A DNA stretch of 64,000 nt, taken from contig QPGO01000024.1 in the NCBI GenBank assembly GCA_008632985.1, positions 449,848 through 513,847 of the forward strand, read 5' to 3'. How positions within the stretch are numbered: position 1 is the first letter of the stretch; every line of letters begins with the position of its first letter. Shown here in pieces: positions 7,319 to 40,200 of the stretch. The DNA is from Psammoneis japonica (Eukaryota). The translations under genes were made by a program, and so were the position numbers. The notes beneath the pieces were generated by a model, which worked only from the letters and a program-made list of their open reading frames with translations, searched no databases and was not told where the DNA came from.

Positions 7319-7482
7319 CTAATTAATTGGCACTTTTTTGGAAAATCTGACGCAATCACTTAGGGACGAGGAGGTTGAGACAACTCTCCAAAAGCAGACA
7401 CAAGAATCAGAATGATGCGGAGACCGACTGTCATCTTCCTTTCGCGCCACGGAAAATCACAACAACACAGACTTCTCACGCG

Positions 7483-15899: not shown

Positions 15900-17900
15900 T
15901 GTAAAGTTTCAAAGTGTGTTTCACACATTTGAAACACGCCAACATGAAAATTGAGACACAAATCGGTCGCGCAGGGTAATTTTGCCTCAAGAGCGCCATC
16001 AAAAGATGGCGCTCAAGCTTTTTCGTATCTTCAGAGTGAAATGTCACCCCAAAAAAAGAAAAAGGGGGGACGCAATGCGGAGACAACAAGAAAACTTGCA
16101 AGTCAACCGCTTGCCAAGCCATTTCACTCCCTGCGAGTGAAGGCTTGCCGTGTCACCGTGTCGCCGGCACGGCGAAACCCCGATTCAGCGTTCCATCAAT
16201 GGCATGATCTGCTCGGCAAGCTCTTGCTGCTTTGCAGACAAACACTTGCTGTCTCTTTCAACAGCCGTGGTCTTGACTGACCAAGTGAACGGGCAACTTC
16301 CTGCGCTCAAAGGCACGAGAGTGACATGGACTCAAGGCTGGAGAGACGCACTTGATTTGCCCGACCTCTGGACTTAACTGGCAACACCCAAGCTGCCATT
16401 TGAGACAACACTTCGTGCAAGCAAAACATGTTGTGGAACACCAAACAAGAGAAAGCCATCAGAACCAGAGGAAGGGCGAGCCATCCTTGGGTGTCGCTGC
16501 ATTCCGGCTTGGCGAACAACAAACACATCATGCCGCAAACGATGCGTTGTGATCGAAAGCGTGAGAGATTTTGTTTGTGTTGTGACCGTTGCTAAATGTC
16601 TCATTCACTGTCACTTTTGTGCACCACAGCAGAGACAATGCCATCACTTCACATGCAGAAATGTGTTTTGAACTTGGCACTGACAAAATCATTGCTGATT
16701 CCTACGCAGACCATGCGGTTGCCACACAAAGCGCCAAAAAAACTGCCGCCGATGATGTCTGCGCCGTTGTCGAGGTCCGTCTGAGCACCATCAGAATTTC
16801 AAATTACTTCTCTACTGTGGCATGTGACGATGATGGCGCCATGCGCACATGGCATGACGATGACATTGGATGTGTTGTCGCAAAGCTCTGGATTGCATCA
16901 TCACAGCAGGAGACCACGGGAAAACAGGGCATCCGCCCAGATGGTGCGCAATTTTGCCTTGTTTTCCATTGAACAGTGTGCAACATAGAAGAGAAGGATG
17001 CACACATTCAGCGGTCGGCTGTCGCAAAAATTTGCGCGCGCTTTTGCTTGGACGTCTGACGTGCCAGCAGTTCTTTTCACCGGATCGCCAAAATGCGTGC
17101 CGTTCGAGCAGTTTTTTTTTACCGGATGGTAAAAAAAATGGCACTTCTTTTTTACCGTGCGGCAACGGAGACGTCAAACTTTTGCTGTTGAGGCAAATCA
17201 AAACCCTCTCGGTTTCAGCATGAGAACCGATGGACGTTTTCCATGCTGACGTTTGTCTTTGAGCTTTCCACATCCTCCGCCAAGCATCCAATCATCGCAC
17301 GAAGCCCCAAGGGAAGAAAGAAGGACTCAGCATGGGCCATGGTGGTTTTTTATGGCATCAGAGAGCGATCGCTGATGCTGTGTGCGAACAGCATTTTTAC
17401 CGGACGACGCAAAGTTGAGCCGTTCAAGCTGTTTTTTTTTGCCGCACGACTCAACATCAAGCCGTTCTTGCCAATGTTGTTTGGCGAAATCGCCAACACA
17501 AACTTTTTTAGCAATTGTCATCATTGCCCAAATACAAATTCCACATGGGCCCTTTGAAATGCATTTGACAACTTCTTTTCACAAATGTCCGAAGAACAAC
17601 AGCCATTCAATTTTCCCGTGCTCTCTGGTCGACAGGATGCATTGGCGTGTTGTTTGCATCCATTGTCAACTGATGTTCCCCATGAGCCAGCCGGGGCAGG
17701 GCTAGTTGGTCGCGCACATTTGGGTTCGATGCAGCCGTGCAACTGGCCATGCCCTGCAGGAAGAGCTGTTGGTGGCGCGCGAGCAGAAGCAACAAAGCAA
17801 AGAACACGGCGTGGGTCAAAACGTTGTAAAATGACACAACAACAAGCAGCGAGAAGAAACCCAACTTGACCCATGAATGCTGCGCATACATGTTGTCCAA
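15900..17900. other. Partially eroded domain B (TpA low, CpG largely retained)
   Basis: Few TpA in 16100-17800 while CpG remains frequent; no recognisable intact ORF. Confidence 0.6.
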
Positions 17901-18499
17901 CCACTTCAATAGTGTCTCGTATTCCCAGCTTGTAGATGAGGGGACGGCGTTCGCGTTTCTCGCCATGGTGTTGTTGTGCGTTATCGTGTTGTTTGCGCGC
18001 GAAGAACACGGGATCTATTTATCCGATAGTGAATCTGTTTTGGCAATAGTAGATGTTTTACTATATAGAATCTGAAGACATTTTCAGAAGCGCTTCGCAA
18101 CGACCCTGTTCGGACCGTTAAATAGAAATTTTTTTTATCCAGATTCCACAGTTCTTTCGGGGTGTTCTGTAAGATTTTTTAATTGCTGTATGTATCTATT
18201 AAAAGCATGACATAATTTTATAATATGTAAAAGCTTCAGAGACCCACATAAATTTATCTTTCATGTAGACCACGTAGGTTGTGTACCGGCGGAAAATCCA
18301 CCGCATGTCAACTCACTCAGTAGTAATTCTACGTATATTCTACTTACACCTCACACACGTACGCACGCCTACACAGTCTAATAACCGCGCACAAGTGCGC
18401 GAGACGAAGAAAACATGAAAAACGTAATCTTTTCCGTGGTACGTTGAGCAAGTGTTGAGCTTCTCAGAAAAAAGCATTTGATTACAGCAACGTATGCTT

Positions 18500-21400
18500 T
18501 GCTCTGGCGCATCCTTCTGATCCTGTGCTACTTTTACCTGTTTTTTAGTTGGCTTGCAATGTGGTTTGTGCTGATGTCTGGAGAAGGCAAATGCTCTAGC
18601 TTGTTGGGTCTCTGGTGCTTTGCCACTCAGTTGTTGTTGTCAGTTCGCGCCTTGTGATTCACATTGTCAACAGTGCAACACTGCATTTCACATGGATGCA
18701 ACTTACACGACCATGCTGCCGATTTGTGGAGTGTCGGGGTTCCCATCTACGACATGATTGTTGGACACACTAATTTCGTGATCGTTTGTCTGAACGCTTG
18801 TTGCTCTTGCATTCGCTGGTTCTTGTCGCTTGTCGCTGGCCCACAGTGCCGTGGTCACACATGCCGACAAATGACACTCCCAAGGCCTTCTCCTACGAAA
18901 GTCCAACTCTCTGTCAAGCACTGCGACTTTGTTGCCATTGGAGCGTTCTGAGTGCCGTGACATCAATGCCCTGGATTGTGGACTTGTGCAGACACATGAG
19001 TGGAGGAACTCTCCACGGAGGAAACATGCTTGGCCAAGGAGCCAGATGGGATTATGCTGCGTGGTGTCCTTGTCTGATGATTGCAACAAAAAAAGGCCTG
19101 CAAGCACTTGAAAACATGTGGCACTTTGACATCAAGAGGTCATGCATTCGTCCAGGTTTCAAGTGCTCCAGTTGTCATGCTGCATCGTTTCTCTTGGCGA
19201 TGTCCTCTGCGAAATTCAAAATGCCGGAGCTGACTGCTCCCGTCGCTGACATCCCATGCCTCTTTAAGCTGCAACTGGACTAGGGCCATGCCACATGTTG
19301 CTTCCGATGATGTCTGCCTCAGAATGGAGCTCCAGATTCCACTCCTGGCCAGGCAGATTCAAGCTCCTCACCCCTCACTCTACCCCGAGCCCAGCGCTTC
19401 TGCTCACAGGGTTCGGAGACCTGTGGTTGGATAGATGCCGTGTGGCTCCGCGGATGCATTGTTGTTGCTGCAGCTGGGGAACAATCTGTCCTTCTTGGAA
19501 AGAATGCATTTGAATTGAAAGGGCAAAGAAACAGGTTTTGTGCTGTGGCTGTGGTGGTGCAGGTGGAAGCAGCGGCAGGAACCAAGTGCTCTTTACCTTA
19601 GATTCGCGCAACTGTTTGCTGTTCTGACTTAATCGACAACATTTGCATGGTCATGACAGGAGTCAATTGAAGCCGTGAAGTTGGACGATGCTGAAATCCA
19701 TGTGTGCCACTGGCCCACACTCCTTCTCTGCCACCCTCCCACCCTCTGACACACCCTGCACTCTCCTCTTACAGCCCATTTGGTTTGCTGCATGTTGATG
19801 AGTCTGTGGCTCCCAGATCACACTGGAGAGGAGGCTGTGTTTGCACATTTTTGCAGATCTTTGCCAAAATCTTCAACTTCACATCACTTGCAGTGTTGTG
19901 CTTCATGCTTGGGGCATCATTGAAGATGTCATCTGGAATGGCATCTGAAACCTTTGAGAACCACTTGTCAGCATTGACAAAGATCCAGCATTGAGATGTC
20001 TCATTGCTCTCCTCAGCATGCTCCCTGATGAGATTCATCTCACGAACTGCTTTCAGTGGCTCTGATTGAAGTCTGTGCTTGGCACATTCTCTGTCAATCT
20101 CACCCTCAAATTGCTCACACTCATGTTTCTTCAGGATCTTGAGCTTGGAGATGTGCTCCAGCCCAGGTGAGACTTCATGTCATGGGTGCACAGAATTTTG
20201 CATGCAAGCTCAACAGCACCAGAGCCCAACTGGCAGATGTTTTGTCTTCAACATCAAACAAACAACAGAGTGTTTGTGGTGCATTTGTTGCACCTCTTGC
20301 AACTCAACGTTTTTGAAGATTCTCCTGCCCTGTGCCGTTTGCAAGACATGTGAGAATGGCGCCACAAAATGTCAAAAGTTGTTGGGTGGACAGCCCAACA
20401 AGTGCACTGCAAAATGACAAAATTGTGCCAAATCCATGCAGAAATGATGTGCGTGCATGACACACGATGGATGAAAAAACTTTTGTCACAGCTGTGGTGC
20501 ACCCAAAGGTGAAGCTCAACTTCTTGTTGCAGCCATGCATTTTGTGATCAAGAAGCTCTTGTTCTAGATGCGCGACACTTGCTTTGAGACCAAGAGGTTA
20601 GAAAAAGCAGTGTCCTGACAGTTGAGGTGAGATGTCTTTGCCATGCTTGAGCTTTTGTGCACAATTTGGCACCCTTTCCTTGCCCCAATGTGCTGCAACA
20701 TTGCTGGCCTTTGACTCTGCCTTTTTCCCCTGTGCTTTGAGATTTTGACCACAGGGATTTCCTGGTTTCTTGTTGGCATTTCAAAAACTTGGTTGGTCCA
20801 AGCTCAGCCACAGTGGTCAACAATTGAGTTTCCAGGTGAAGCATGGTGCACTCAAGCTAAGGCATCTTCTTGACACCACAAAAATGCCCACACTTGTGCC
20901 ACTTTGGCAAGCTCTTTTTGTTGTCCCCTTTGTCAGATCTTCTGAGCATCATTTGCTCTCTGCACTCCATTGCCTTCCTTGTTGTCATGACACTCTCTTG
21001 TGAAACCATTGCTTGCAATTGCGCATGCATGTGCTGCTGTCTTGCCTTTTCCAGTGGATGCCACAAGAGCACCCAGCTTTGCCAATCTCTCACTTGTTGT
21101 TGTGCTGTGTGGAGGAATGATTTCCTTTAGAAATCACTGCAAAACACTTGGGGGAGTTTGGATTTGTTGAGTCACAAACAATGAGGACCCTGCCAGCAAT
21201 CTTGTCAATGGCCTTGCTGTGGAACACTGCCAGCAGGCACAGCAAGACAGACCTCAAAAAGCTGTTGTGCTGTGGAGCTTCCTTCTGGAGAAAGAAATGA
21301 GCAGAACTTGGCAAGACAGCTTGGATGAAAGAGTGTGGGCAACTGGCTTTCTTGTCAAAAAGCATGCAACAACTTGGCCGGTTGGTTGCTTGGTGCAGAC

Positions 21401-23640
21401 AGCTTTTTTGATTTTCTGCTCTGTTGCGAAGCAATGTGCACTGCATTTCTTGACATGCGATGTCATTTTCTTGACAAACCAACCATTCATTCAATCTTTG
21501 CTTGAAGTGCAGTGTCTTGCATCACTGCAATGTGATCCTAAACACCTTGAACTTGGCCGCTGTTTTCCATGTTCCTGTTGTGTCTTTGAGGTCCTGGATC
21601 TTGAGAGAAATGGCACACAAGGCAATGTTGTGACATCAGATGCCCTGGCACACCAACCACAGAATCAGGTCCTTGGCACTATTTCATGTGTGGGTTGACC
21701 TGTTTTTGTGTGAGTCCTGCAAGGAAAATGTGTCAGCAACAATCCATTCTGACAAAGCAAGCAACAGAAAGTTGGAGGAAAGGGTGCTCTCTTTTGCTTT
21801 TGTCATTGTCACTTTCCTGACACCTTCTGCCACTGCTTTTAAAACTCAAAATGCTTCACAGGAAACAAGCAAGATAGCCAACTGTCCACCAGTGTGCAAT
21901 GAGCAGCTCTTGCATTGCCCCGAGCAAGTCACCCAGCATCTTGAGTTTAAACAGCAAGTTTCCTGGCATTTCAGTGGCTGCCACAGGCATCTTTGTCCAT
22001 GCTGCATCTGCTGGCTGCCTCCACTTCAACTTCAGTTCTTTGCAAAAATGTGCAGGCTGTGCGAAGGAGTTGAGCTGCACTTTAATTGTCTGAACCACTG
22101 CTGCCAATGTGGTTTGCACTGGAAGCTGAAAGGCAGACTAGATGCCATGAATGCTGAATGAATCGGATGTCACTGGCTTGCAAAACATGCCTGCTGTGGT
22201 CAAAGCTTTGCCAGTGGACACTCAGAAGCACTTTGCCCCCACAGTTGCATGTTTGTCCCTTGAACTTTTGATTTTAATTGCCAAGGCATCACAGGCTCTG
22301 CTTTGCACCAGTGGTGATGTCTTTGCTGTGCTCTTCGTTCTGTTGCAGGTGAGGTTGGCAGAAAATTGCATCAAAGAGCCATGTTGGAGTGTCACAATTT
22401 TGTCTGCTTTGCTCCAGATTCTGAGCATTCTCACTTCTTGCATGTTTTGTCCACTGTCAGACTGCACAAATGAACAACCGGTCTTTGACACTGTGTTTCC
22501 AAAGATGACAAGCTGTGTGATGGCAAGTTCCACCACCCAGTTGTCCAGCATGGAATGCCCTGGACTTGACTTTGCAACAACTGTGAAGTGCCCTGGGCTT
22601 GACTTTGCAATGAAGAGCTGGTTGAAGGAGAAGCATTTTCCACAGTCTTTTTGTCTACAATGCACTTCCAGTTCAAGCATGAAAGTGCACCTTGAAAGTC
22701 AAATCAGAATCTCTTGGTTGATTCTTGACATCCGCAGATGCACAACTCAATGTGAGTGTGGCAAAAAGCTGCTTGGTGCATGGTGTCAGCAAATTTTTCC
22801 TTGTTTGCAAAGCTTCTTCATTGTGCTCACCACTGCTCTTTCTTGTTTGCAGCACCCAAGGTCTCCTTTCTTGGTGCAGCAACAGCTGGAGCTTGTTTTT
22901 GCGAAGCACCCATTTGTTGGAGGAAGCACCTGTGGTGCAAGGATCGGTCTGTCACTCTTGCTGCTGGAAAGAATGCAACAACATCTGAAGGAAATGGAAG
23001 TGATGGGTGTGCAACCTTCCAACAGGCTGGTGACATGAAAATGCACCATTGAAGCTTGTTGGCAATTTTTCCTTGGGTTCTTTTGGGTCGGGTGTTGTTG
23101 TCCTTTGCTTCTTCTGACTAGAAAGAGCTGTTGTCCCATGCATGCAAACAAGTCAGGTGATCTGTTGGAACAGCAAAATTGTCTTGTTCTGAAACGCAGT
23201 AAAGTGGCACATTCCTTTTTTGCGTTGGACTGACAGCGATGTGCAGGCTGTTGAAACCCAACGTGAATCCAGGCACAAGAGTGGGCTTGTTGCTGCTGAA
23301 CATCAAATGCCTTGACATGCCAGAAATCACATTATTCACATTGTATTTGAAAGAAAATGCACCCAGACGAAGCGGACCCAATCTTTGTCAGGGAACCCAT
23401 CAGTTGTGTGTCTTGGTGTCGTTCGACGCATTGATGAAGGCCTCGAATGCTTCGAGACGCGCTGAGTTCATTTTGCCATCAATTCGTCAAAGCAGCCCAA
23501 TCAAAAGAATGATCAATGTGTTTTTGGTCTGTGTCTTTGTTCGATCGGGCTGCTGATGCTGTCTTGTCAAGAAATGCCCTGCAACGACAACTGTCATTGT
23601 CTGTGGCAAATCGATGCCGTGATGAAAGTGCGGCATGGTG
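18500..23640 (-). pseudogene. TpA-eroded domain C, probably a decayed long minus-strand gene or TE of unrecognised family
   Basis: TpA/CpG depletion strongest centrally. Protein-like minus-strand fragments (e.g. 19769-20038, 22222-22680, 23118-23381); no family motif recognised. Confidence 0.5.
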
Positions 23641-24678
23641 CGTTTTTTTTGGAAGGTCGACAGACCCCAAGTCGAACTACTCTCTACTCCACTAGCCAGA
23701 GTAGCTAGAGTGGTAGTAGCCCGCCTCTACCGGTGGCTAGAGAGAGAGAGCCACTCCCGGCTTGGGAGGTCAGAGAGAGCTACCGGCACTAGTGGACAGC
23801 CAAGGGGCCACAGAGTCGAGAGCGAGTTGTTCATAGCTAGAGACTACTCTAGAGTTGGTGCCGCAGGGAAAGTCTAAAAGATGTGTCAAAAGTTATCACC
23901 CTCTTTTCAGACCAGAAAGAACCCACCTTGCATCAAAACGAAAACCAGACAGTGCTGCTTAGCCCTGCATAGAAGCTCCGAAGCTCGCCACTCTCTCTCT
24001 CTCTAGAGCTACTATATTCTATATTGTACCTCTACTGAGTAGAGTACCCTACTATCGGTATCTACCAGAACATATGGGTAGCTAGGCCCACCCTTGACAA
24101 ACTTTGAAGCTGCAAAATGTGATGGGATCAAACCGCATGAAGAATCTGGCAACTTCTGAATCAAACCTGTCCTTCCCCCAAAATCTCGCCATTCACTCAA
24201 ATTTCTAGTTGACGTGCACACAAAGCATGGCTTGCTGTGTACTGTAGTGATGTAAGCCAGAGGAAAGCAGTGGCGCCAACACAGTCGGATACGTGTCATT
24301 GAAGCCCTATCTTCTTGATGTATTGGGAAGTTCCCGGCACTCTTGGATGAATGCAAGATGCAAGCCAACACTCTCAGACCGCGCGTTTGCGTGGCCAGTT
24401 TCTCGCAAGAAAGATTGTTTGCAGGAAAAAGCTAAAGGCAAGCCATTTCGGTTGTAACAAAAGTTCTTACATAGTGAGGTGTTATCAAGGACCAGGCAAA
24501 AGTACGGTGGCAGATTAGGCAATAAAAAAGTTCGATGGGTAGGTGTGTCAAAAAGTGATCCGTCGTGTGGGTTGCATTGTATGTACACGATCTTCATCAG
24601 CTGTTTGTTCTTCCAAATTGACACATGGGGTATATCATAGGTCTCTGTTGATATCTGTTTTACATCATGTCAGTCGCT

Positions 24679-25339
24679 CTAGGCTTTGTCGTCGTCGGTC
24701 AGAGCTTTCCATAAACCAACTCCGGCTTGAAAGAGACCACTGCTGACACTACTCAAACCCCAACCAACAGCACCAACTGCGGCGCGCTTCATTGCTGCAC
24801 CAGGATCGGCAATGGTAGAGTGTCGATCGTATCGTTTACGAGTGCGCATGTCGGAAAGAATTTCATATGCTAACTTTATTCGCTCCCATTCATCTCGAAC
24901 TTCATCGTGATTGTTGCTGAAGCACGGATTTACAAAAAAAAGGTTTTGAATGCATCTGCTGTGCATACTGTACAAGTAATGCCAAAAAAACCTAGAAATC
25001 ATACAGTACGTACCAGCTTCCTGGAAGAATGTCGCGGTGCCTTGCTCCATCGGGGTGGTATCGACGAGATAGCTTTTTGTATTTATCACGAATCTCTTTA
25101 CGGTCGGCATTTCTCGGAACCTTGAGGACTCGGTATGGATCGAGTATCTCACCGCTTGCTGTTTTAAATTCATCCAATAAGAACGAGGATTCGCTGTCTT
25201 CCGATGGAAGATTTCTTATCGGAGATGCTACGTTATGGGGCGCAACGCGAGCAATGCTTCGACCGACAGAAGTGGGACAGAAACCGGCCACAGTCGAGTC
25301 CGAAACAGCCAGAAGAAACAGAAGATAAGGAAGTCTCAT
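24679..25339 (-). CDS. DnaJ (J-domain) protein, probably plastid-targeted; exons 25339-25014 and 24916-24679
   Basis: DPYRVLKV...EIRDKYKKLSRRYHPD; GT-AG intron 25013-24917 joins GSC-NNHDEVRDEWERIKLAYEILSD..RKRYD; signal peptide with VAG-FCP motif. Confidence 0.9.
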
Positions 25340-25557
25340 ATTCGCGAACGACAAAAACAATCAGGAAAAGCTTAGAAGTAGTTTCAACCACAAGGCACCT
25401 CGAGCCTCAAGTAATGCAGACAAGTGGAACGGTAAGCTGTGCAAGTATGAAACGATAGGGCTAACTCTAGAGCGCTGTCTGTAGCTAATGCCCATGTCCG
25501 TCGAAGGCAGAAAGAGAAAAAGTTGAAAGTGTCACAAGAAAGCAAAATCAGCAATCG

Positions 25558-27705
25558 CTGACCAGGGATACAGCATTTTATGAGAAAAGGAAAAGAAAGC
25601 AAAAAATAAACATTTTTTAATGAAGTTTTGACACGGGGCGCTGTAGCACCGCAGTGCGCAGTGCAGACGGACGCATGCAGGTGCAGACGCGCCACGTCCC
25701 GGCGACAATTGCAAGCAAGTGGTGGAGGCAGGCCGTTGAGGAACTCGGGAGCGGCAGGCAGGGTGCGTCAGGCACGTCGAATTCGGTACGAAGTGTCATG
25801 CGTTCATGCGCGCAGAAGGATGTGGATCGCCAATGCCTGGAACACAGCACACAGCAGTCAGCACACCTCTGTCATCATGGCATCAGAATGGCAGAGGAGA
25901 ACATCGTTCCGTCTGGCAAAGCAGCTCCGGAAGTCGTGGCACAACTCACGGGCACCAAAGGCATGACTGCGGCGGCAGTTGCCACAGCTGCACTCGGTGC
26001 CGCGGGAAGTGCCGAGGGTGTGTCCGTCGAGTCTGAACACGCAAGGATGTCAGAGAAGCCGGCGCAGCCCCAAAGTGAAAATGGGGAGAAAGCCGTGCCG
26101 CCGGAGCCAACCTTTCAAATTTGCAGTTTGAAAGAAGTGGAGCAGCTGGGTTGCACCGCCGAGCAGCTCCTTTTGGCTGGTTGCAAGATTGACGTGTTGG
26201 GTGGACAGGCCACCATCCTGAAACTGAGGTCCTGGCTCTTTGCGGCGGCAAAAGCGAGGAGGCAGCCAAGCCGCAGCTGAAGTGGCCGCAAAAGCAACGG
26301 AGGAAGAGAAAGAGGAAGGAGGAAGAAAAGCAATTTCCGGACCCCAGCGAGCCGTCACTCGACTTGTGGGACTGGTTGTGGTGGCACGAAAAACCCGAAA
26401 ATTTCCAGGAGGCCATGTGGATGATGAAGGATGCGTCGAATCATCCCGGCCTCTGGTTCCCCATGCTGGGAGAACTGTGGTGCATCAGGAGTGACCCTGA
26501 AGCCGTCGCCAATGCCCACGGCGAATGCTGCAATTGCGCAAACACAAAATTGGGGTGCCCAACCACTGCACAACTGTCCAGCAAAACCAACAGTAAAAAT
26601 GCAACAATTTCGTAAAATCGAAAATTTCGATTGGACCAGCACACCACGCAGAAATCTGCACATGCGTCACACAACGTCGAATGGATTTCAACCAACAAAC
26701 CAAGAATGCGTGAACGCAAACGTCCCACAAAACAAAGCAACAGAGAAAAAAATGGATTTGCAACAACAAACAAAGAAGGCAGACAAGCCAAAGAAAACTG
26801 GAGAGGACAAGAAAAGGGTGCAGACAGATGCCGAACTGTTTCAGTCAGCAATGAGAACAAAGAAGACAGGGAGAAATTACGGCGGAAGAAGCAAGAGCGG
26901 CGTTCGAGCTTGCTTCAGGAAATTGTGATGTCTCATCTGCACTTGTGCCAGACAACACGAGAGTGGACGGTTGTCGTGTGGAAGCAACGGTCGTGCCCAG
27001 GGATGATTCAACCATGGAGGAGCCAAAGGCAGCATGGGCGGCAGCACCACCACAGACTGGTGGGAGATTTTTCACCGAGGAGGAGCTGGAAGAAGCAGGA
27101 GCAATGGAGCAGGAGAAGGAGCAAGCAAGGATCCTACAGAACAAGTGTGGACAGAAACAATGGAATGGGCGCAAGTTGCAGCCAACTGTTTGGCAAAGAC
27201 AACCGCATCAATGCGCAAATTTCACACACTCAGACTTTCACTTGAGCCACCGCGGATCGAGCATGGACAGAAATGATGGAATGGGTGCAAGTTGCAACCA
27301 ACTGTTTGGCAAAGACAACCGCATCAATGCGTAAATTTCGTGCACTTACACTTTCACTTAAGCCACCGCACCTCGAATTAGACAACATCAATTGCACTGC
27401 TCTGGCCCCAACGCATGTTAGTCAGGTCGCGTGGGTCGCGCAGAAGTGCGTATGGTACCGTAGCTAGCACCCTGTTACGAAAAGCAACCGTTGTATGTTT
27501 TAATAAATTTGGACGCCCGGCGCAAAACTCACTTAACAATGCAGCAAAATGATTGGTGCAAGCAATCGTCACGCCTCTATTTTCTGATAGTAGCGAGCGC
27601 GGCAATCCAAAATCTTTCGGTTTCAGACTTCGATGTAGAGAGTTCCACCTATGTATAAGAGAGGAGGAACCAATTTGTGTACTTTGCAATATCTATCCTG
27701 GTCAG
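25558..27705. mobile_element. Candidate 2.15-kb non-autonomous or decayed element with short imperfect terminal inverted repeats (domain D)
   Basis: ctgaccagggata (25558-25570) versus tatcctggtcag (27694-27705); interior is TpA-free but CpG-rich. No target-site duplication found. Confidence 0.4.
27148..27379 (+). repeat. 116-bp tandem duplication
   Basis: Units start tggacagaaa at 27148 and 27264. Confidence 0.95.
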
Positions 27706-28192
27706 GGGTGACACACACGCGTGTGTGGCTTTTCGGCTTTTCCAACCAAGCCCAAGGGCCTATCTCCTTTAGGCCTATCTACTCTCTACTCTAGCTAGCT
27801 AGCTCCCGCGGCCGCGCCGCCCCTGCTCTACCTACCGCCCGGCAGAGTAGAGTAGAGTAGTCTATAAATGGCCCGAGTTTAATATCGAGCGGATAAAGGT
27901 GGGATTGACTGAAACGTAACGTCACAAGGACAGGTGAATTGAATTGGGTGATGCTCTGTTATTGGAGATCCTTGTCTGTCGTGGTCTCGGGTCTCGGGAA
28001 CTAAGTGCCCTACTAGGAAACCTATGACAAGGAACTGGAGTTCAGACTCAAAGAATTCGGTGCTTTTTGCAGATTTGCGGTATTTATGATTTTGGGATAA
28101 GAGAGCGAAAGACGATTTCGGTCGCAGCTCAAGTGGCGCCATCAACCTGTCCAGTTTCGACAGACAAAATTCCTTCTTTACTGTGAACTTAT

Positions 28193-31100
28193 GGATCGGT
28201 ATGTTTTGGTTATGAGAGACTGCGTTGAACAGTTGAGCGGATACTCCAAATTCTCATCATTCAGTTCTTCTCCTCTGTACTAACAACAATCCATATCGCG
28301 CGTGCAGAAATCGGGAATCAGTTGGAGGCGGCAGAACTGGATCAGGCGGTACTTGCGCAAGCATAGCTGTCAGCTGTTCTCTGGGACGAGTTATCTCAGA
28401 GCACGACGTTTTCAAAGAGAGCTACAGGAGACATGCACCACGTTGTGAGGAGGGTTGGAGCTGCAAAGAAGGGACTTGATTGACAAGAAAGGACGAATTG
28501 AACCATCAACGAGTGCTGGTGGAACAAGAACGTCGGGAATCTGAAAAAAAACAATACCTGGCTCTATCATGAAAAGCAATAGTACTCAGGATACTTCTAT
28601 TCACACGCAACTAGGAGAACATTTTCCGTTTGCGTCTGCGGGTGAGAAGGAAGTTCGTACTAGTACCATACGCTCTAAACTCGCCGACAAGGCGGTTTTG
28701 CCAAATTGGTAGAGTTTCGAAAACGCGAAGAGAAGATTATCAAGCAGGACCCGCTACTGAAGCAATTGAGACAGCGACAACACTCATCCGAATTCACCAC
28801 CTTCCTTATTCCCATCTTCTCATCTCCACCTTCCACGGGCTGGGCCAGCTTCACCTCTAGACTACCGACAGCAGACCACTGCCACGTCGAACTTGCTTAT
28901 TCATTGCAGCCTGGCCGCACTCCAACCGAGCGAATTCCTTTTTCTGTTTCCTTTCTCATCTGCGCCGCATCTCCACGAGCTTTCGTCGCTGATCTCCGAT
29001 GAACGGCTATCAGCAGGTACTATGGGACCGACTCCAGGCGATCCTCCAACGAATATGCTGCCACCGTCGCCCTCTCCGATACCTCCCAATAGTCTTCCAC
29101 CATAGAATCTACTACAACTCCAGGTGAACCTTCACCATATTCACCCACTACTCCGCAGCCAAATAATGCTCCACGAACTGATTCAGCAGGTTCAGCATCG
29201 GCTTCTGGAGAGCACAACACAGCGCCTCCAAGAAAGTCTTCGCCCACTGCGACCCGCACCCCACCGCCAATAGCACAAGAGATGCGTCCACCGACTGCAA
29301 CTCCAATGCGAAAGCCAAGCCTGCCGCCGACTTTGCAGGCATCACAGAATGCGCCTCCTACAGTTGATCCAACTACACCGCCCCGACTCCAAACCCAACA
29401 TTTGCCTCCCACGTCATCGCCGAAACCATCTCTTCCTCCTACATTAAATCCAACAACGTCTCCCACGCAACCAGTGTCACAAAATCCTACACCGCCTTCT
29501 ACAGCTAATCCGACACCGCCGCTGTCACCGAATCCATCTTTGCCACCGACGCCATTTCCAACGTCACCACCAACACCTCGCTACCTATCATTAATCCAAC
29601 ACCGCCGCCATTTCCTAATCCATCTCTACCACCATCGCACAGTGCGATACCGCCGGCGGAAAAAACCAACCCTAACTCCGACACCTGATCCATCGCCGGT
29701 CACCTACCTGCTACAATTGCACCAGCCTCAGTGTCTCCAACGACAACTGATGGCGTGCTTTCTTCGGTTCTTTCCCGGTGTCCAAAAGGACTGATTGGAG
29801 TACCCAGCTGCAGCTACTGGAGCACTGCCCTCGGCAATCTTTTCGGGTAATGAACCGAGTGGAGCTCCAAGCGCTAACCTTCGAGTGCTTTTCTGCCTTT
29901 TCAAGTCAATCTCCTTCCAGCGAATCAAGTGTGCTCCGTCCACCGTATGTTACCGTCAACGTACTCAGTGACGTGCTGATTTCCGTGCCATCTACTGCAC
30001 CGTACGATGCTCTTTCTTCAGTACCAATTCTGACACCAACAGGAATTGTGCCTTCGTCAGCTCCCTCAACAGCTCAATCATCTATATAAGGGCAGTACAC
30101 CAAGTGAAGCTCCGAGCCTTACCCCCAGTGACGAGCATACTGGTGCCTGTCTAATGCTACATGTCAATCTCCAACAGGTGAATCTAGTGTTGAACCATCT
30201 TTGTCTCCATCCGCGGTTCCCAGTGACGTGCGGATATCGATGTCATCTACTGCGCCCTCCGACTCTCCGTCTGTTGGGCCAAGCTTATCGCATGTGGTAC
30301 AGGACTTGCACTTTTGTCAGCTCCTTTGACAGCTTCATCATCTGTTTCGGGCTGTACACCAAGTGATGCTCCGAGCGAAACGCCGAGTGACAAAATTCTT
30401 GGTACTCCGTCGGTTTTGCCAAGTCAATCTGCAATAGGCGGATCTAATGTTGCACCGTCTTTGTCGCCATTCTGGTTGGCCCATTCAATCACCTACAGGA
30501 TTTTTAGCTTCGTTAGCTCCTACGAAGGTGCCGTTGTCTGTTCCGAGGGATTCACCAGGCGAAGCTCTGACCGAAGCCCCAGTGATGTACCTGCTGATGC
30601 TCCGTCTGCTTTTCCAAGTCGATCTCCAACAGGCGCATCCAGTATTACACCGTCTTTGTCGCCATCCGCTGTTCCCATTGACGTGCAAAATCGATGTTGA
30701 TCTCTTATGCCCTCCGATTCTCCGTCTGTTGGGTGTAGACAATGGCCCATAGGACTTGTACCTTTGTTAGTTGCATCAAGTGAAGATCCGAGGGGAGCCC
30801 CCAGTGAGGCACCCTCTGGTTTTCCGTCAATGTTTTAAGTCGGATGCCGTCAGTTGCTCCCACTGCTTCGTGTTCCAGTGTGCTGTCAACTCTACCCATT
30901 GCTGTTCCGTCCGGAGAAACCTTCAACTTGGTCAGACCTTCTGATGTACCAAGTCAGATCCCTTCCGGTGCTCCGAGTAAATTCCCATCTACCGTAGTGG
31001 ACCAAGGACTGTCCTGAGTGCATTGCTTTCATCATCACCAACTACAGGCCTCAGTGATGCCTCTTCCGGATCATCGTCGACTGCGCGAAGTGGTGCCAAC

Positions 31101-31945: not shown

Positions 31946-32840
31946 AGGATTCGTTAAAGCTAGTCTCGTGTAATATTTCTATGCATACATGTATTACAAC
32001 TGATTCCAGAGATGCTAGATAGAAGTTAGTTAGACTAGAAGTAGTATCCCCTCGGAAGCGCTATGTCCGGCATCACATTGGCGGTGGGACAGCTCTCGCC
32101 TGAGCCGCTCAATCTCTGCGAATGCGTCATCGCGCTCTTGTCGTAAGCGTCGCGCTTCGGGATTGTCGGGAACCAATCTCCAGTTTGGGCAGAGTTCTTA
32201 TCAAGACAGGGAACAGCTGCACAGGAAGAACTCTGACAGGGAGTTTGCCTTGATCTTCGGACAACAATGCACCCAGGCATTGTGCAATTGCACAGAGGTG
32301 CACAAGGATTCCTTGGGTGGATGTTGATAACAGCAACAATGTCATCCAACAGCTCAAGTCAATTGGGAGCTGCACAATGCAGAGGCAAACACACCAAGGT
32401 CCCGTGCACACAGTTGTTGACTCCAAACACTTGCTGATCACATTGGAGCGCGCAATGTGGTGATCCAGACCACCTTTCTCATGGCGATTTTTTGTTAATC
32501 TATTGTGGCATGCAACTCCATTGTTTCAAACTTTGACAGTTGTGCACATGGTGATAATTTGTTAAATGTGATGAGCAAAAAAGTGCCATTGTGGGTGACC
32601 TCCATTCCCCATGAGATGCAACCTTTAACTGTAAAAATGCAACCTGTTCCCCCTTCAGAGTGCATGCCTTTCTTACCTTTTTAATGTGACATTACAAAGC
32701 CTTTTGACAAAACAAATTTGTGCTGACAAACACTTTCAACGTGGTTTACAAAATTCACATTTCCAGGCATTTGTCAATCAATGGGATGAAACATCTCTCA
32801 ATGAACACTGAATTGCTGCATTCCCAGTTTGTAATTGTTT

Positions 32841-33815
32841 TCAATGAACACTGTTGCATTGCTTTGCCACACTCCATTGTTGCATCAACACAAGGCTCCA
32901 CTCTTTCTCTGCACCGAAGTTTGCCCATTTCCTGCCTCTTCTTATCTTTGCTTCCATCCTCACTTTGTTCTTGTCCGTTGCCTCTTCCTTGTCCTTGCCA
33001 TCATTGCTGGAAAGCTCTGTCATTGCCTGTTTTCTTGCCTCCTTCTCCACCGGCATTTTCTTCCTTTTTGCTCCCTTTCCCTTTTCATCATTCTCCCTTT
33101 TCTTGCCACCACTGTGCCATGTGTTGAACTGCACACCTTCCTCACTTGTCCTGTCTTCTTTCACTTCAGCAAGCAGGGCATTGAATTGCAATGTTCCTTC
33201 ATCATTCCACAAGTCACGCTGTTGGGTTGGGTCTGGTTTTGAGTCCTCTTCCTCATCGTCCCCTGAGTCTTCCCCCCCTCCCACAGTTTTCTCATGAAGG
33301 GCCTTGTGCTCCCAAATCTTCCAGCAGTTTTCCAATGTCAACAGCCCCAGAGCCTTGTTGCTTGCTGCAGTTAGATCTGGAGCCTTGGTCTCACATGACT
33401 CCACCTTCTTTCTCCATGCCACGGTGCTTTTTGTGAATTTTAGGACATTGTCATAGAACCATGCATGTGCTTCCTTGTTCTTGTGCTTTTTGTTCACAAT
33501 TGTGTTCACTGTCTGCTCCTTCCAACTTGCCAGGAATGGTTTTTCATCCGTTGCTTGATCCTTCTTCTTCCTCTTGTGTCTGGCAGTCCACAGGACAAAG
33601 ATTTTGGACACCCAAAATGCAAGGTTTGGGGAACAAAAATTTTGTCTGACTTGCCCTTTTTCATCGATGACACAAGAAATGTGATGATTGCACTGATCTT
33701 GAGAGCTCGCGTGCAAAGAATTTGGCGTTTGACTGGACACAAGGACAAAAGCAGAATTGGCAATGTCATTGACCAGGGGAAACACACTGTGAATCCATGA
33801 TTTTGTGACTTCCAC
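32841..33815 (-). mobile_element. Decayed TE accessory ORF next to the Plavaka-like transposase
   Basis: ASNKALGLLTLENCWKIW and WNDEGTLQFNALLAEVKEDR resemble the S.EA..LL.LENY..W / W..EG..RFN.L...V..DR family seen in diatom transposon neighbourhoods. Confidence 0.55.
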
Positions 33816-34009
33816 ATCAGATCAATCTTGGTCTGAGGTGGCACACACACTTGAAGGGGGGGTCCAACAGGCAGGGCTCACCAGTGCCTGATTGCGGGTG
33901 CTCGAAATTGAACCCTCCCCCAACACAACACACACATGACAGAAAAGTTGTTGTCACTTCTGAGTCCCAGGGCAATCCATCCCCATGCATGCCAGTGAAT
34001 GATGTGAGT

Positions 34010-34270
34010 GACCAGACAAGCCAGACAACATTCCAGTTTGTTCCTGGATCGGCAGCTGGGCCAGTCCAGGCTGGCTGAGGACCAACAACAGAGACAACAA
34101 ATCTGACATTTTTAAAGTCTGACTGGACAGACTGGACAGTGTGGTTGCAGCTCATTCCTGGGTTGGCGGCCTGGCCGGTCCAGGCCGGCTGAGGGCCAAT
34201 GACAAATGATGAATCTGATGGCAAAAATCTGACTGGACAGACTGGATGGCATTCTAATTTGTTCCAGGGT
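34010..34270. repeat. About 2.4 copies of a ~110-bp unit
   Basis: Recurring gactggacag, gtccaggc.ggctgagg, aatctga blocks. Confidence 0.8.
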
Positions 34271-36210
34271 CATGGGTCTTGGGCTCTCTCATCCATTTGT
34301 GTTTCACCGCTTGACTCAATCACCACTTGCCTGCCCAGCTCTGCAGCTGATCAGCTCAACCTGTGTGGGCATGGCTTTGATGCTTTGATGATGTGGTTGT
34401 GAGTTCTCATCTGCCAAGGTGAAAAAACACTTTTGCAGCTGCGCTGTTGTTGCACTCTTGATGCATGTCATGCCAAGACAGTCCCACATCCATTTCACCA
34501 TGGACACCACCAAAACTTGTGGCAGCAGCTCACCAACAGAAGCATGAGGGGCAGGTCTCTCAACGCATGAGGAGTGTCAGTGCCAATGAGAACAGAGGTG
34601 CTTTGGATGCACTCTGTTGTTCAATCACTTGTTTGATGGTCTGCAGCTCTCACTCTGCTTTCAACTGTGTCCAGAATTGATGTTTTTAATCAGAGGGCAA
34701 TGGTTGTTTGTTGGATCCAGAACAAGTTGCAATGTGGACGATCCATTTGGCATTGCTCTTGTGCTTGCATTGGGCGGCATTTTTGCACATCATGTGGCTC
34801 ACATTTGGGCAGATTGCATTGCAGCAATTGGTGGTGTGACATGTGAGGAGGAGCACAGCAGTGCTGCTGATTTTGTCTCACCTCATAACCAACAAATTGA
34901 TGAGTGCTCTGACAACTGCACAGAGTGGACAACACGATTCAGTGTGGGCTGCTTGTGACAATTGCATGTTTTGTTTGACCCACCCATTTTGGTTCTTGTG
35001 CCATGTGCTCATGAGCATCAGTGCCAATTCACTGGTGAGGAGCTGCTTTTGTTTTCCTTGACCAAGGCGTCACTTGCAGTTGACAACACTGTGTTGGCGG
35101 ACAACTGCTTTAGAGGCAGGGATTTGACTGGGCGGTTGCATGGATGCAAGTTGTTTTTGATGTTTCTTGATGACAGATGTGCTCCTGCACTTGGGCAACA
35201 AGGTCTTGAAAGGCAGATTGATGAATTTTTCTTGTTTGCAAGAGCAGCGGAGCGCAAACTAAAGCAACAGGCTACTTGGACTGACCTGGATGCTGCTCAA
35301 GCATGCAACCTGTCCCCAGCCTTGTTTGTCCACCAGGGAATTCAACATTTTTGGTTTTTTAATTTTTCAACATTTGAAACAAATGCTCCAGGGACAGGGA
35401 CAGTTGAGGACTGGGCAGCAGATGCACTGCATTGCCCTGATGCAGATGGCATTCAGTGATTGGTGCACACAGGGTGCAAGAAGTGCACTCATGGCACAAA
35501 GACACTTGCAATGACTTTTCCAAATGGCCTGAGCATCACATGGGGTGCCACTTCAGCTCACAGGCAAGCACACAGTTGTGTGTTGCCAATGTGGTGCTTT
35601 GCATTTCCTGCAAAAACACAGCTGCTTGTCATTCTCACTGCCCTTTGCATTGTTCAAGTTCACCAGAGCTTGCACTGATTTGCAGCACTTGTCAGCCGTG
35701 AACCAACACTTGCTGGATCTTCCGCAAGGCTGCTTTCCAAATGATGGCATGGCATTGTGCTGTGCACGCACAGACCAGGGATTTGCTCAACAAGAGTGCA
35801 TCATTCACCTGTGTCACCCCAGCCACAACAGGCTGGCTCCACTCACACCCATTCAGGTGCTTGAAAATCATTGGCTCAAGGCAGTGCACATCATGGCAAA
35901 GTGGAGCTGCAGCATTGCATGCAATGTTTCTCAAATTTGCAAGGCATTGTGTCCTTTCAAGCCATGCTGTGAAACACCGCATGCTTGTGAGCAGCTTTGC
36001 GTGTCTTTCTTGCTCACAAATTGTTGCATGTGCTTCAACCACAACCAGATTGGTGTGACTGGCACATTTGGTTTTGATCCACCATCAATTCAAAACCACT
36101 TGAATTGCATCAGATCTGTGCCATTACAAACTTGGCGTAGAATGTGGCTTCTTGCATCTTTGTGTTGCATGTTGTTGCCAAACTCATGGCACTTCCATTT
36201 CCTGAAAACT
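34270..36210 (-). mobile_element. Degenerate Plavaka-like transposase
   Basis: Minus-strand fragments HCLEPMIF (cf. LEP..FTL), QCHAII (cf. YH..L) and RVHPKHLCSHWH at about 34617-34580 (cf. RAHP.Y...WYDW). Confidence 0.5.
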
Positions 36211-36214
36211 CGCT

Positions 36215-36920
36215 GGGAATTTAGTGTGCATCAACTGTGGGGTCGTTTGGACACATGGGACACAATTCTGTTCTGCTCAAGGCATGGAAACAAAAATGCT
36301 GCCATTGGAAAGTGCTTGTTCTGCAGATGACATTGATGCTGTTTGTTGTTGCAAAACTTCCATTGCTTCTGGAGCAACACCTGGCTCATGATGATGTGCT
36401 GGGAATTTGGTGCACAACTGTGGGGTTGTTTGGATGTGTGAAAGAACTCTGATCTGCTCAAGGTGTAGAAACAAAAATGCCACCATTGGAAAGCACTTGT
36501 TTGACAGATGACATTAACTCTCTGTTTGTTGTTGCAAAGCTCCCATCACTTCTGGAGCAATGCCTGGCTCATGACAATGCCCTGGGAATTTGGCATGCAA
36601 CTGCGGGGTTGTTTGGATGCACAAAAGACAGTTCTGATCTGCTCAAGGCATGGAGACAAGAACACTGCCATTGTCATTCTGCAGATGACACCAACACTGT
36701 TTGTTGTTGCAAAACTCCTGTTGCTTCTGGAGCAATGCCTGGCTCATGATGACGCACTGGGTGTGAATTTGGCATGCATCTGTGGGGTTGTTTGGACACA
36801 TTTAAGACAATTCTGATTTGCTCAAGGTGTGGAAACAAAAATGCTGCCATCAAAAAGTGCTTGTTCTGTGGATGACATTGGCACTGTTTGTTGTTGCAAA
36901 ACTCCAATTGCTTTTGGAGT
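36215..36920. repeat. About 4 tandem copies of a ~183-bp unit
   Basis: Units start (gg)gaattt near 36215, 36401, 36584, 36766 and share ctgctcaagg, gatgaca, ctgtttgttgttgcaaa, cttctggagcaa, cctggctcatga. Confidence 0.95.
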
Positions 36921-39049
36921 GACACTTTTGACGACCCGGAAGCAACTCAAGAAATCAACAAGCACATTGAAAATGGTGCCAAGCTCACTGTCATCTGGTC
37001 TTCTTGCCACAAAGTCAGCGATTGCCTTCTGCTTTCCTTGAGCAGAGAAACTGGTGTCAAGAAGGATGAATGCCTGGAACAACAGATCATCATCATTAAA
37101 TTGGAGACTGGGGATCAGCACTGCCTTCATTTTTCCAAGAATGCTCTCAACCAAGCATTCAACAGCAAGGACAATGGAGATTCAGGCACAAAGGAATGTC
37201 TTTTGCACATTGGTGCAACCACATCCTTTGCTGTTGCCATGGAGTTTGGAGCTGGGGCCAGCCTCTTGTTGGCTGTTTTGAACATGGCTTGCAAAGATGT
37301 TGAGCAATGTCATGATGCCCACCATCAAGGACTTGAAAATGTGCAAGTTCTCTGCACACACCAAAATGGAGTCTCCGCACACACCAAAATGGAGCTGCCC
37401 ATGAGAGCAACGGCTGTGGAGAACGTGCTGGGTGTTCCTGTTTTGGAGCATCCAGCTTTCCATCATTTTGAATTCAACGAGGAGTTGCACTCAATTCTTG
37501 CCGGGTCTGAGGGCCGTGTCAGTCTTGACTTCAATGGGCACAGCTTGGTTCTGCAAGCGGGTGTCCCTGAATTTGCTTTGTTCAAGGAAGTGCCTCATTG
37601 CATTGAGGAAATCATGGGGCAACCACAAAAGTCACTTGTCAAATGAATCCCAGTGCTTGAGTCTGTGAACGAATTCATGGTCGCACTTCAAAAGGTTGAG
37701 ACTGTTGCAAACCTGCTTGAGGAACAAAAGGTTTTGCACCCTCTTGGACAGGCAGCTGGTGGTGAAGGAGAGTCTGAGGTCATTTGTGAGCAACTCCTTT
37801 TGTCTCAAAACAGTGTTTCACCAAATGACTTGGTGGTGCAGGCCCTGAAAGCCCGGTGGTGGGAGGCCCTGTCGGGGCTTGCATTGGTCCTGCTTGAAGA
37901 TGCTTTGAAAAAGATTGACTGCCAGCCAGCTGGGGCCATTGTCAATGAGTTTGCAGAAAGCAAAGTTCAAAAAGAAAAACAATGCCAAGGAGAAGCTGGA
38001 GGTGTTTGCAACTGAACTTGAAGACAATCCATTCACAGTGTTGCGATCCTCCCACAAGAATCTAAAAACCTGCATCTCAAACCTGCTTGACCCAAAGGCC
38101 ATTTTTTCCTCAAGCATCTGTCACTTGCAACTAGAGCTGCCAGTGGTGGACATGAATTGTGGCAACATCTGTGTTTGTGCAGCCAGCAACAAGCTTCTTG
38201 ATCCAGAAAATGGAGAAAACAAGCAAGAAGACTCAATGTTGTGCTTTGCAGAACTGGCTGGATTTGAGAAGTTGAGTGCAGTGTTGCTCAAAGTGTGAGA
38301 TGCCCAAGGCATTCTCTGTGATGCTGTTGTCTGTGTTGCCTGTTGAGACAACAGCAATTTTGATGCTGCAATGCCGGCAACAATTGTTGCCGGTGTTGAG
38401 GAACTTGGTTTGAATTGTTGCACACAGTGAGGTGGTCATCAGCTTGTTCGTCAAAGGGCCGGCATTGCAACTGCTTGGCGAGTGGCTCAAAACACTGTGG
38501 CTTGCTAACATGCACCTGAGCAACACTCAGCAGAAGGCACTTGTGCACTGTGAGTGTCTCTTGAAATTGCAGAACTGCAAGCATGACCATGATGGCCAAG
38601 GCTTTTTGGGAGACCAACACCTTCATGAGCCTAAATTGAACTTGGACATTCACCAAGATGTTCCAAAACACTTCTTGGGGATGCTGGTCAAGGGCATGAA
38701 AAGTGGTGCTGTTTGTTCTCTCATGTTCAAAGGAGGCAGCAGCACTTTCAGAATTGAAGAGTAAAGAACATTGCACTCATTCTCAAAATTAATGGATGTG
38801 CCAAAGCCAGAGGCATGGCGTTCCATCTGAACCAGTTCAAGGTGCTAACTGACAAGAATGAGACCAGGTGGGGTCACAATCAGCCAGTGAGTGCAGCAGA
38901 TTCTGTTGCTGTGGCTGGCTTGGAGGCTGCCAAACCCAAAGTGATGAGTCCAGGAGATTCTGTGATGTGTCTTTTTGCAACTCTGTCTTGTCTTGTCTAG
39001 TCTCATCTTTTCTTGCTTTCACTGTCAGATTCTCAACATTGTGAAAGGG

Positions 39050-40200
39050 TTTGCAAACAGGCTCACGGTGGCCAGGACTGCGGCACAACCAGCAGTTGCC
39101 CCTGCAGGAAATGTGGTTGATCAAGAAGTTGTTCCTGATGGCAGACAAAATGAGATGGATGGAGGGGCTGCCAGCGGAGGTGGCCACAATGGTGAAGAAC
39201 AACCAGTGGCTGCAAGAGAGGGTGGCAGAAACAACAATGGAGTCAAGATGCATGGAGGAGCAGTTGCCGAAGGTGGACACAACGGCACTGGACAACCTGC
39301 AGTTGCAGGTGGAGATGACAACAAAGGAGGAAACGAGATGGACAGAGGGGCTGGACAACCAGCAGCTGCAGCAGGAGGTGACACAGAAAACAATGAAAGA
39401 GACAAGATGGACAAAGGGACTGCCGGTGGAGGCAATGGGAACAAGGTGAACACTTGTGCTCTGACTGCATTGACTGTGCTGAACACTTGGGGTGACACCT
39501 TCAAGGTTGACCCCATCTCTTGGTCATGCAACTCCTGCATGGTCAAAAACAAAGGGTTGGCCATTGCATGCATTGCCTGTGAAATGGCGCCGCCCACTGA
39601 AACGAGCAATGCACCAGTGGGTGCACCCGCTCAGTGCAACTTGGGTGAGGACATGCCAAATGCATCAATGGGTGCACCCGCTCAGCCCAGCTCAGATGGG
39701 GGCATGCCAATGATTTGATGGCTGCATCTGCTCAGCGCAACTCAGAAAAGGATGTGCCAAATGCAGTGATGAATGCACCCGCTCAGCACAAATTGGGCAA
39801 GGACACGCCAAATCCATCGTTGGCTGCACCACCAGCAAGTGGCCCAACTGGGGGTGTCAGTTTTGGATTCAATCCAACTGCATCCAACTCCCAGGTGAAG
39901 TCAGACAAGCCAGAATCCATGGGAGTGACACTTGCTCTTCCAGCAACTGCCTCTGGAACTGGAGGTTTTGGTTTCGGTTTCAAGCCAAATGATTTGAACT
40001 CCGATGCAAAGTCAGACAAGCCAATTAAATCCACAACAGTGCCACCCACTGGAGGTCTAAGTTTTGGATTCAATCCAAATGTGGACTCCCAGGTGAAGTC
40101 AGATGAGCCAATCAAATCCACTGGAGTGGCACTCACTCTTCCAAAGACTGGATTTGAAGGTTTTGGTTTTACGTTCAAACCCAATGCATTTAGCATCCAA
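39050..40200 (+). pseudogene. Nucleoporin-like fragment: RanBP2-type zinc finger plus FG repeats
   Basis: WGDTFK...SWSCNSCMVKNK..IACIACE (W-x-C-x2-C-x3-N-x6-C-x2-C), followed by GGVSFGFNP, GGFGFGFKP, GGLSFGFNP, GFGFTFKP; frameshifted near 39715. Confidence 0.75.

Follow-up and report, generated by a model that had tools for sequence, protein, structure and literature searches.

Near absence of TpA in a multi-copy element of the diatom Psammoneis japonica: a tandem pair at the margin of the depleted tract and a probable A:T-to-G:C mutation process in silent DNA

Repeat-induced point mutation (RIP) riddles repeated DNA with dinucleotide-specific transitions, probably as a genome defence. It makes TpA from CpA, lowers the G+C content, and depends on cytosine methyltransferases of the RID/DIM-2 type and on a premeiotic stage. 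The process is known from Neurospora and other ascomycetes, and two reports deal with it (PMC2621366, PMC7296669). A dinucleotide-specific spectrum centred on TpA is presented in the main text of a 2026 preprint on the alga Bigelowiella natans (B. natans), where 230 of the 231 new mutations found in two integrated viral regions of mutation-accumulation lines were A>G or T>C, all at TpA (bioRxiv 10.64898/2026.01.13.699255). The same text gives the cut-offs by which Mettrop et al. define hypermutated clusters, namely an observed/expected ratio of at most 0.43 for TpA and of at least 1.52 for CpA+TpG. Among the matches listed in full-text literature searching, none described such a process in diatoms, and only this preprint, on a distant alga, reported the same spectrum. 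Here we describe a 64,000-nucleotide stretch of contig QPGO01000024.1 from the diatom Psammoneis japonica (assembly GCA_008632985.1; hereafter the window, within which compositional domains were compared). It contains a multi-copy element with a tract almost devoid of TpA, and two tandem units of 116 bases lie at one end of this tract. The footprint of the tract runs opposite to that of RIP and falls within the compositional cut-offs of the B. natans clusters.

The tract, its margin and the surrounding repeat were located as follows (a strand is given only for features that have one; dinucleotide steps are written TA, CG, CA and TG).

25645-27331: TA-erased tract, with 5 TA against 80 expected from base composition, 94 CG against 122, 311 CA+TG against 202, and a G+C content of 0.540
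27332-27450: margin of the tract, with five TAs (27332, 27347, 27359, 27379, 27419), all in refractory flank classes (defined below); the first susceptible-class TA stands at 27451
25612 to about 27823: multi-copy repeat family with single-copy DNA on both sides; summed contig depth of 850-3220 against 63 in the flanks, a sum that is not a copy number

With ratios of 0.06 for TA, a 16-fold depletion, and 1.54 for CA+TG, the tract lies within both B. natans cut-offs, and its G+C content exceeds that of the flanking DNA (0.463 and 0.495). The likeness extends further, as far as the main text of the preprint describes the B. natans clusters: in both cases kilobase-long stretches combine TA depletion with a compensating excess of CA+TG, both strands are affected, the changes appear to be transitions only and the targets are non-genic or foreign-looking. 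The diatom tract sits in a multi-copy element while domain-bearing genes are spared in TA-normal DNA. The two systems nevertheless differ in several respects. The B. natans targets described there are integrated giant-virus and virophage DNA, whereas the diatom target is a multi-copy element in which no viral or transposase domain was found by Pfam scans; in the diatom, erasure is nearly complete and CpG decays alongside; and de novo events were seen in mutation-accumulation lines of the alga, whereas the diatom footprint is known from assembled contigs of one sample. The bias for the 3' neighbour and the graded margin described below are absent from the main text of the preprint, as are CpG, diatoms, boundaries and flanks, and its supplements may hold flank data.

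The resemblance to RIP is confined to dinucleotide-specific transitions in repeated DNA and to a change that can leak or stop near the edge of a repeat. RIP yields an excess of TpA and a lower G+C content, whereas the diatom tract is TA-depleted with raised G+C; moreover, a stretch mutated by RIP should follow the extent of the duplication, whereas the present tract ends within the repeat, with different outcomes in two nearly identical units 116 bases apart. The decay of methylated CpG by deamination is a third known process of relevance, since 6 of the 12 variable steps of the tandem pair involve CG. At nine sites (25807, 25937, 25998, 26034, 26039, 26052, 26190, 26526 and 26785) CG accounts for 86-100% of the family depth, and this copy shows TG or CA. 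This decay cannot remove TA, however, and in the tract the loss of TA, with 5 remaining out of some 80, is far ahead of that of CG, with 94 remaining out of some 122, so that CpG decay explains part of the pattern and not the loss of TA.

The same footprint recurs on a larger scale in the window, which is eukaryotic nuclear DNA. Its reading frames carry PPR, Maf, TsaD, D-glutamate-cyclase-like, UPF0047 and DnaJ domains (Pfam). The named best matches of the TsaD frame are diatoms, at no more than 73% identity (Mediolabrus, Conticribra, Attheya, Thalassiosira, Detonula, Chaetoceros, Fragilaria, Striatella), and the sole exception among the 120 matches listed is one ciliate transcriptome. Four domains nearly lack TA and CG:

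1-7000: TA 24 against 462 expected
19500-23400: TA 21 against 276 expected
32500-47400: TA 60 against 1029 expected
59400-64000: TA 9 against 264 expected

The observed/expected ratio of TA is 0.02-0.07 in the erased domains (0.03-0.08 as computed for the larger ones), compared with about 0.55-0.7 in the normal DNA of the window, where that of CG is about 0.8-1.0. CA and TG reach 1.5-2.2 in the erased domains, and CA+TG about 1.7-1.9 in the larger ones. Across all ten compositional domains the summed density of the four pyrimidine-purine steps stays between 0.229 and 0.254 per base; this constancy implies that the missing TA and CG are balanced by the extra CA+TG. No run structure was detected in the order of CA and TG along the domains (runs test, z between -1.5 and +0.8 in the erased domains). 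Genes with Pfam matches (PPR, Maf, TsaD, DnaJ and others) sit in TA-normal DNA, and among the 81 frames of the erased domains none exceeded a curated Pfam cut-off, three matches being weak and sub-threshold (DZR, Zn_ribbon_RanBP, DUF5536).

The tandem pair at the right end of the tract was detected by two approaches. Tandem Repeats Finder reported a repeat at 27148-27369 with a period of 116, 1.9 copies, 89% matches and a score of 367. When purines and pyrimidines were each merged to one letter (R/Y coding), so that transitions are ignored, 27134-27254 and 27250-27370 were alike at 119 of 121 positions, with a score of 113 against 34 for the best of 20 shuffles. The initial annotation had placed the pair at 27148-27379: the tandem is real, and its limits needed correction, as the R/Y-coded repeat begins 14 bases further left and ends at 27370, which leaves the last nine bases (27371-27379) outside. 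A third copy, too diverged to be more than a weak outgroup, lies within the TA-erased tract.

27134-27249: inner repeat unit (U1), 116 bases, with one TA (27135); all six inferred ancestral TAs are gone, as read from the R/Y match to 27250-27370 and the step table of the pair
27250-27370: outer repeat unit (U2), 116 bases plus 5, with TA kept at 27332, 27347 and 27359 and CG kept at 27251, 27253, 27258 and 27339
26571-26648: third, diverged partial copy of the unit; score 44 against 20.7 +/- 2.6 in shuffles (0 of 300), with a 43-base core of which 31 bases are identical (0 of 500 shuffles)

No further copy of the 116-base unit was found in the 64-kb window by blastn, an R/Y-coded scan of the window returned low-complexity matches only (best 37, against a null maximum of 34), and the exact 34-base core common to both units had no match in a metagenome scan.

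Over 121 positions the two units differ at 19, by 17 transitions and 2 transversions. Sixteen of these differences fall within 12 pyrimidine-purine steps that switch among TA, CG, CA and TG (P=0.00014 by simulation), and 4 of the 12 steps are double switches (P=0.0011 by simulation), leaving only three differences elsewhere (27141, 27181 and 27233). The step table of the pair reads:

27135: TA in U1, CG in U2
27137, 27142, 27170, 27223 and 27253: five steps with CG versus CA or TG
27146, 27158 and 27225: three double steps with CA versus TG
27216, 27231 and 27243: three steps with TA versus CA or TG

CpG is thus involved in 6 of the variable steps, TA in 4 and CA-versus-TG doubles in 3, step 27135 being counted under both CpG and TA. 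The letters on which attention had first been drawn to the pair are all present (gcgCAaa/gcgTAaa at 27216/27332, ctCAg/ctTAc at 27231/27347, ctTGag/ctTAag at 27244/27360 and ttcaCAcac/ttcgTGcac at 27224-6/27340-2), and the inner unit does lack the three TAs of the outer one, at the steps 27216, 27231 and 27243. Taken alone, these three sites are not exceptional: in 200,000 simulations in which 10 random transitions and 1 transversion were placed on the CA/TG-rich unit, 39% gave at least three TA-versus-CA/TG differences (P=0.39), and 26% did so with all TAs in one copy. U2 has 27 CA/TG/TA steps, and its three TAs all stand within the final 9 (P=0.029). In U1, the outcomes at the putative ancestral TAs are 4 CA and 2 TG within 100 bases.

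A 534-base tandem pair in TA-normal DNA (12854 / 13416) served as a control; it showed 34 transitions to 33 transversions and not a single CA-versus-TG double. Among other repeats within the erased domains, CA-versus-TG doubles numbered 41 against 5 for AC-versus-GT (10 comparisons, three of which overlap in one array).

Two repeats of the erased domains may be mentioned individually. A 183-base array of four copies at 36212-36925 holds 13 mixed CA/TG columns and one CA/TA/TG column, a pattern as expected if ancestral TA or CG had been resolved separately in each copy. At 45694-45796 there is a tandem duplication whose 53-base copies are 100% identical, and it is probably younger than the erasure around it.

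The few TAs that survive in the erased domains are not a random sample. Their flanks (n=140) differ from those of TAs in normal DNA (n=1096; chi-square P=3e-28), with enrichment of TTAA (5.1-fold), CTAA/TTAG (3.05-fold) and GTAA/TTAC (1.9-fold), and depletion of GTAC (0.1) and ATAC/GTAT (0.25), ATAT being absent. When both strands are considered, the 3' neighbour of the A of TA is A in 47% of survivors and in 19% of the TAs of normal DNA, the corresponding figures for T being 7.5% and 25%. TAs were accordingly classed as refractory when that 3' neighbour is A on at least one strand, T or C in this position constituting a susceptible flank. The rarer susceptible-class TAs are locally, the larger is the share of the refractory class, which climbs from 0.20 to 0.68 (P=2e-24), and the 400-base windows of intermediate density, only five in number, retain a normal refractory-class count (4.2 against 3.7-4.1). 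These normal counts at intermediate dose, together with the rising refractory share, are what loss at different speeds predicts and not what gain predicts. The order suggests a mutator preferring T or C as 3' neighbour over G, and G over A.

The same bias marks the end of the tract. The last TA before the margin stands at 27135, none follows until 27332, and the five consecutive TAs of the margin all belong to the refractory class (P about 6e-4, from a refractory share of 248 among 1083 TAs in normal DNA). Comparable runs of refractory-class TAs were found at three other edges, at about 7100-7400, 19500-19800 and 32500-32800. The tract begins about 33 bases within the repeat on the left; on the right it breaks off inside a tandem unit, leaving about 370-490 bases of the repeat beyond it. 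The pair had been thought to straddle a domain edge: the tract does end within the pair, but inside the outer copy rather than between the copies, and it gives way to a margin instead of a clean edge. The pair therefore spans the transition between an interior that is fully erased and a margin in which erasure is partial, rather than the border with untouched DNA. If the three CA-versus-TG doubles derive from TA, U1 lost 6 of 6 ancestral TAs, whereas U2 lost 3 of 3 susceptible-class TAs (27262, 27274, 27341) and kept 3 of 3 refractory-class ones (one-sided Fisher 0.05, a test that assumes TA ancestors and uses flank classes defined from the same window). The outer copy itself has thus probably lost three TAs.

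Information on the copy family was drawn from contigs of a public sequencing run, probably of the source sample, of which 489 aligned at 80% likeness or more; the letter states given for the family concern the best-supported 40 of 174 variant places. Long single-copy contigs end at 25611 and restart at 27622, and the element is multi-copy in between. A paralogous contig spans the U1/U2 junction (27186-27311, with 14 other letters) and another joins 27369 back to 27271, from which it follows that the tandem is real and older than at least one split in the family. At 27181 the family has A in 815 of 862 depth units, so that the G of the inner unit derives from an A-to-G change. The TG of the window at 26153 and 26183 is common to more than 90% of the family depth, and a transcribed paralogue has TA at both sites. 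At 25985-6, 26124-5 and 26138-9, this copy shows the CA/TG state opposite to that of all other aligned contigs, which implies that some conversion occurred after its lineage had split off.

Two transcribed genes flank the element. They were delineated with contigs from a second public run, which behaves like spliced RNA.

24452-25562, minus strand: transcribed DnaJ-domain gene with an intron at 24917-25013 (an RNA-like contig skips 97 bases with CT..AC ends where the contig of the other run is continuous; Pfam match to DnaJ on the minus-strand frame, one of its two halves above the curated cut-off)
27879-29000, plus strand, continuing past 29000, the end of the compared stretch: transcribed downstream gene with an intron at 28198-28306 (an RNA-like contig skips 109 bases with GT..AG ends)

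As the gene contigs end at 25562 on the minus strand and start at 27879 on the plus strand, the repeat fills the space between two divergently transcribed genes, and the tract fades about 430-460 bases upstream of the second one. The RNA-like run has no contig across 26417-27622, a gap that is left uninterpreted.

The coding potential and termini of the element gave no lead as to its nature. No protein match at E<=0.001 was obtained for the frames 26855-27331 and 25624-26277 among proteins of near length, Pfam returned nothing for the frames of the tract even at E<=5, Rfam and tRNA scans of the element gave no matches, and no convincing terminal inverted repeats were seen. One RNA-like contig matches 25972-26272 with 31 differences and then continues into unlike sequence, and at least one family paralogue seems to be transcribed. 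Two small features lie just upstream of the transcribed gene, in the right part of the repeat, which is unmutated: a perfect 16-base palindrome of CA, CG and TG steps (27712-27727) and a 10-base inverted repeat around a G+C-rich spacer (27784-27857).

Evaluation of the direction of change calls for caution. It had been proposed that the pair reveals TA turning into CA and into TG directly. The differences are present, but the direction was overstated, as the pair displays differences only: its spectrum of 17 transitions among 19 differences includes 6 steps with CG and gives no direction by itself, and within-pair parsimony requires 16 events both under a decay model (TA and CG to CA/TG) and under a model in which every change is C to T. 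Likewise, the proposed ancestral ttcgTAcac receives weak support from the third partial copy, which reads TTTCGTA where the two units read TTTCGTG and TTTCACA. The direction favoured is loss of TA, and it is favoured by context rather than by the pair alone: by the constant pyrimidine-purine density, by the raised G+C content of the tract (as conversion of TA to CA/TG with retention of most CG would produce), by the bias towards refractory flanks among survivors and in the margin, and by the mutation-accumulation spectrum of B. natans. For the sites of the pair themselves this direction is inferred, and TA, rather than CG, would be the ancestor of the CA-versus-TG doubles.

On these grounds we consider it rather probable that the pair records a DNA-level process converting TpA into CpA or TpG (A:T to G:C), together with slower CpG decay, on a silent multi-copy element and in a tract set by position. 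A mutator would change the A of TpA to G on both strands, and it would act on DNA because CA and TG outcomes are interleaved without run structure. Silent DNA would be its target, where CpG would be lost too, more slowly, and the extent of a tract would be fixed by position and not by sequence identity. The inner unit would lie in the fully erased interior and have lost every ancestral TA. The outer unit would lie in a margin of about 100 bases with a lower dose, where TAs with susceptible flanks would have been converted and three refractory ones would have survived. A candidate agent is an adenine deaminase of the ADAT/TadA kind, as is also proposed for B. natans in the text of the preprint (bioRxiv 10.64898/2026.01.13.699255). 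From the gene layout, the edge may correspond to a chromatin boundary ahead of an active promoter. More tentatively, and with less than even confidence, we suggest that the process is bounded by position, for example by silent chromatin decaying over about 100 bases before an active promoter, and not by repetition, with an order of loss running from T/C through G to A.

Several observations weigh against this account. Step 27135, with TA in U1 and CG in U2, is explained if all changes are C to T, whereas the decay model needs an extra kind of change. An ancestral CG could give rise to the CA-versus-TG doubles just as TA could. At 27244/27360 the weak outgroup has TG, like the inner unit, and it is uninformative at the other two TA sites; this TG is ambiguous rather than contrary, because the outgroup copy sits inside the erased tract. 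Two of the inferred conversions, at 27231 in U1 and at 27274-5 in U2, would have occurred on a strand with a refractory 3' neighbour of A. The paralogous contig bridging the junction places the tandem in at least one other copy, and among the best-supported 40 of 174 variant places none of the variable sites of the pair except 27181 shows a near-unanimous alternative letter. Part of the difference between U1 and U2, and the end of the tract, may thus have been inherited from a source copy that was already mutated, since more than 90% of the family depth shares TG at 26153 and 26183. The pair is consequently a modest, internally consistent example and not a direct demonstration.

This last point can be developed into an alternative with the same process and the same direction, in which the U1/U2 differences and the tract end were inherited from a source element erased before this copy arose; the coincidence of the edge with the local gene layout would then be uninformative on how the process is bounded. 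The presence of the tandem in at least one other copy, seen in the junction-bridging contig and in the 27369-to-27271 join, speaks for it, as does the TG state that most of the family shares at two sites where the transcribed paralogue has TA, which points to descent from a mutated state. We nevertheless regard it as unlikely as a full explanation, given the opposite CA/TG states specific to this copy at three places and the recurrence of refractory-only margins at three unrelated edges of the window.

A mutator working in the opposite direction appears improbable. All changes would then be C:G to T:A, through CpG decay and a RIP-like conversion of CpA/TpG to TpA, and the outer unit would have gained its three TAs. 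Such a model accommodates all 12 variable steps, 27135 included, in 16 events, and agrees with the TG of the weak outgroup at 27244/27360. It leaves unexplained, however, the near absence of TA in the tract (5 against 80 expected), the mass balance and the raised G+C content, and under it the 121 bases of the ancestral unit must have held about 12 CpG. Nor does it account for the fact that the gained TAs, like the two that follow them, all belong to the classes that persist in erased DNA, and at 27181 the inner unit departs from the family consensus by an A-to-G change. Ordinary neutral divergence since an old tandem duplication, with a chance pattern in CA/TG-rich sequence, would suffice for the three TA sites taken alone (P=0.39), but is very hard to reconcile with the concentration of 16 of 19 differences in switching steps, with the four double switches, and with a transition to transversion ratio of 17:2 where the control pair of the normal domain has 34:33. 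Equally implausible is A-to-I editing of an RNA intermediate (ADAR-like hyperediting) before copying back into DNA, which would fit the preference of ADAR for T (U) 5' of the edited A, a preference that also appears in the discussion of the B. natans preprint, but not the interleaving of CA and TG (4 CA and 2 TG in U1, runs test z near 0, where a one-strand pattern would be awaited) or a tract that stops inside the element.

Other features of the window concern erasure outside the element under study. One additional tract, TA-poor and CG-keeping, is probably another recently erased element:

16000-18000: TA 21 against 126 expected, CG 113 against 124 expected, no Pfam match in its frames

Between TA-poor stretches, the 500 bases at 18001-18500 form an island of 43 TAs, roughly double the normal density. 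Next to the erased domain 1-7000, an uninterrupted, TA-normal open frame of 1109 residues extends from 7351 to 10680 on the plus strand. It has no Pfam match; its neighbours in a protein atlas are clusters with DUF6729 and, further off, Mutator-like transposase families (scores 0.96-0.93), and over its first few hundred bases the TAs are mostly of the refractory class. This frame may be an intact mobile-element gene escaping erasure.

The locus adds two testable features, an edge within identical sequence and a flank-dependent order of loss. If the position-bounded reading is true, the tandem pair would be a natural experiment with the same sequence at two doses, and the order of loss among flanks would reflect the substrate preference of a natural diatom DNA adenine deaminase. 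The process would also confound analyses of diatom genomes that are based on dinucleotides, codons or repeats. More generally, diatoms, which are major marine primary producers, would carry a targeted A:T-to-G:C editing of their nuclear DNA, a process that would defend the genome by a chemistry the reverse of that of RIP and would parallel, in nature, the engineered adenine base editors.

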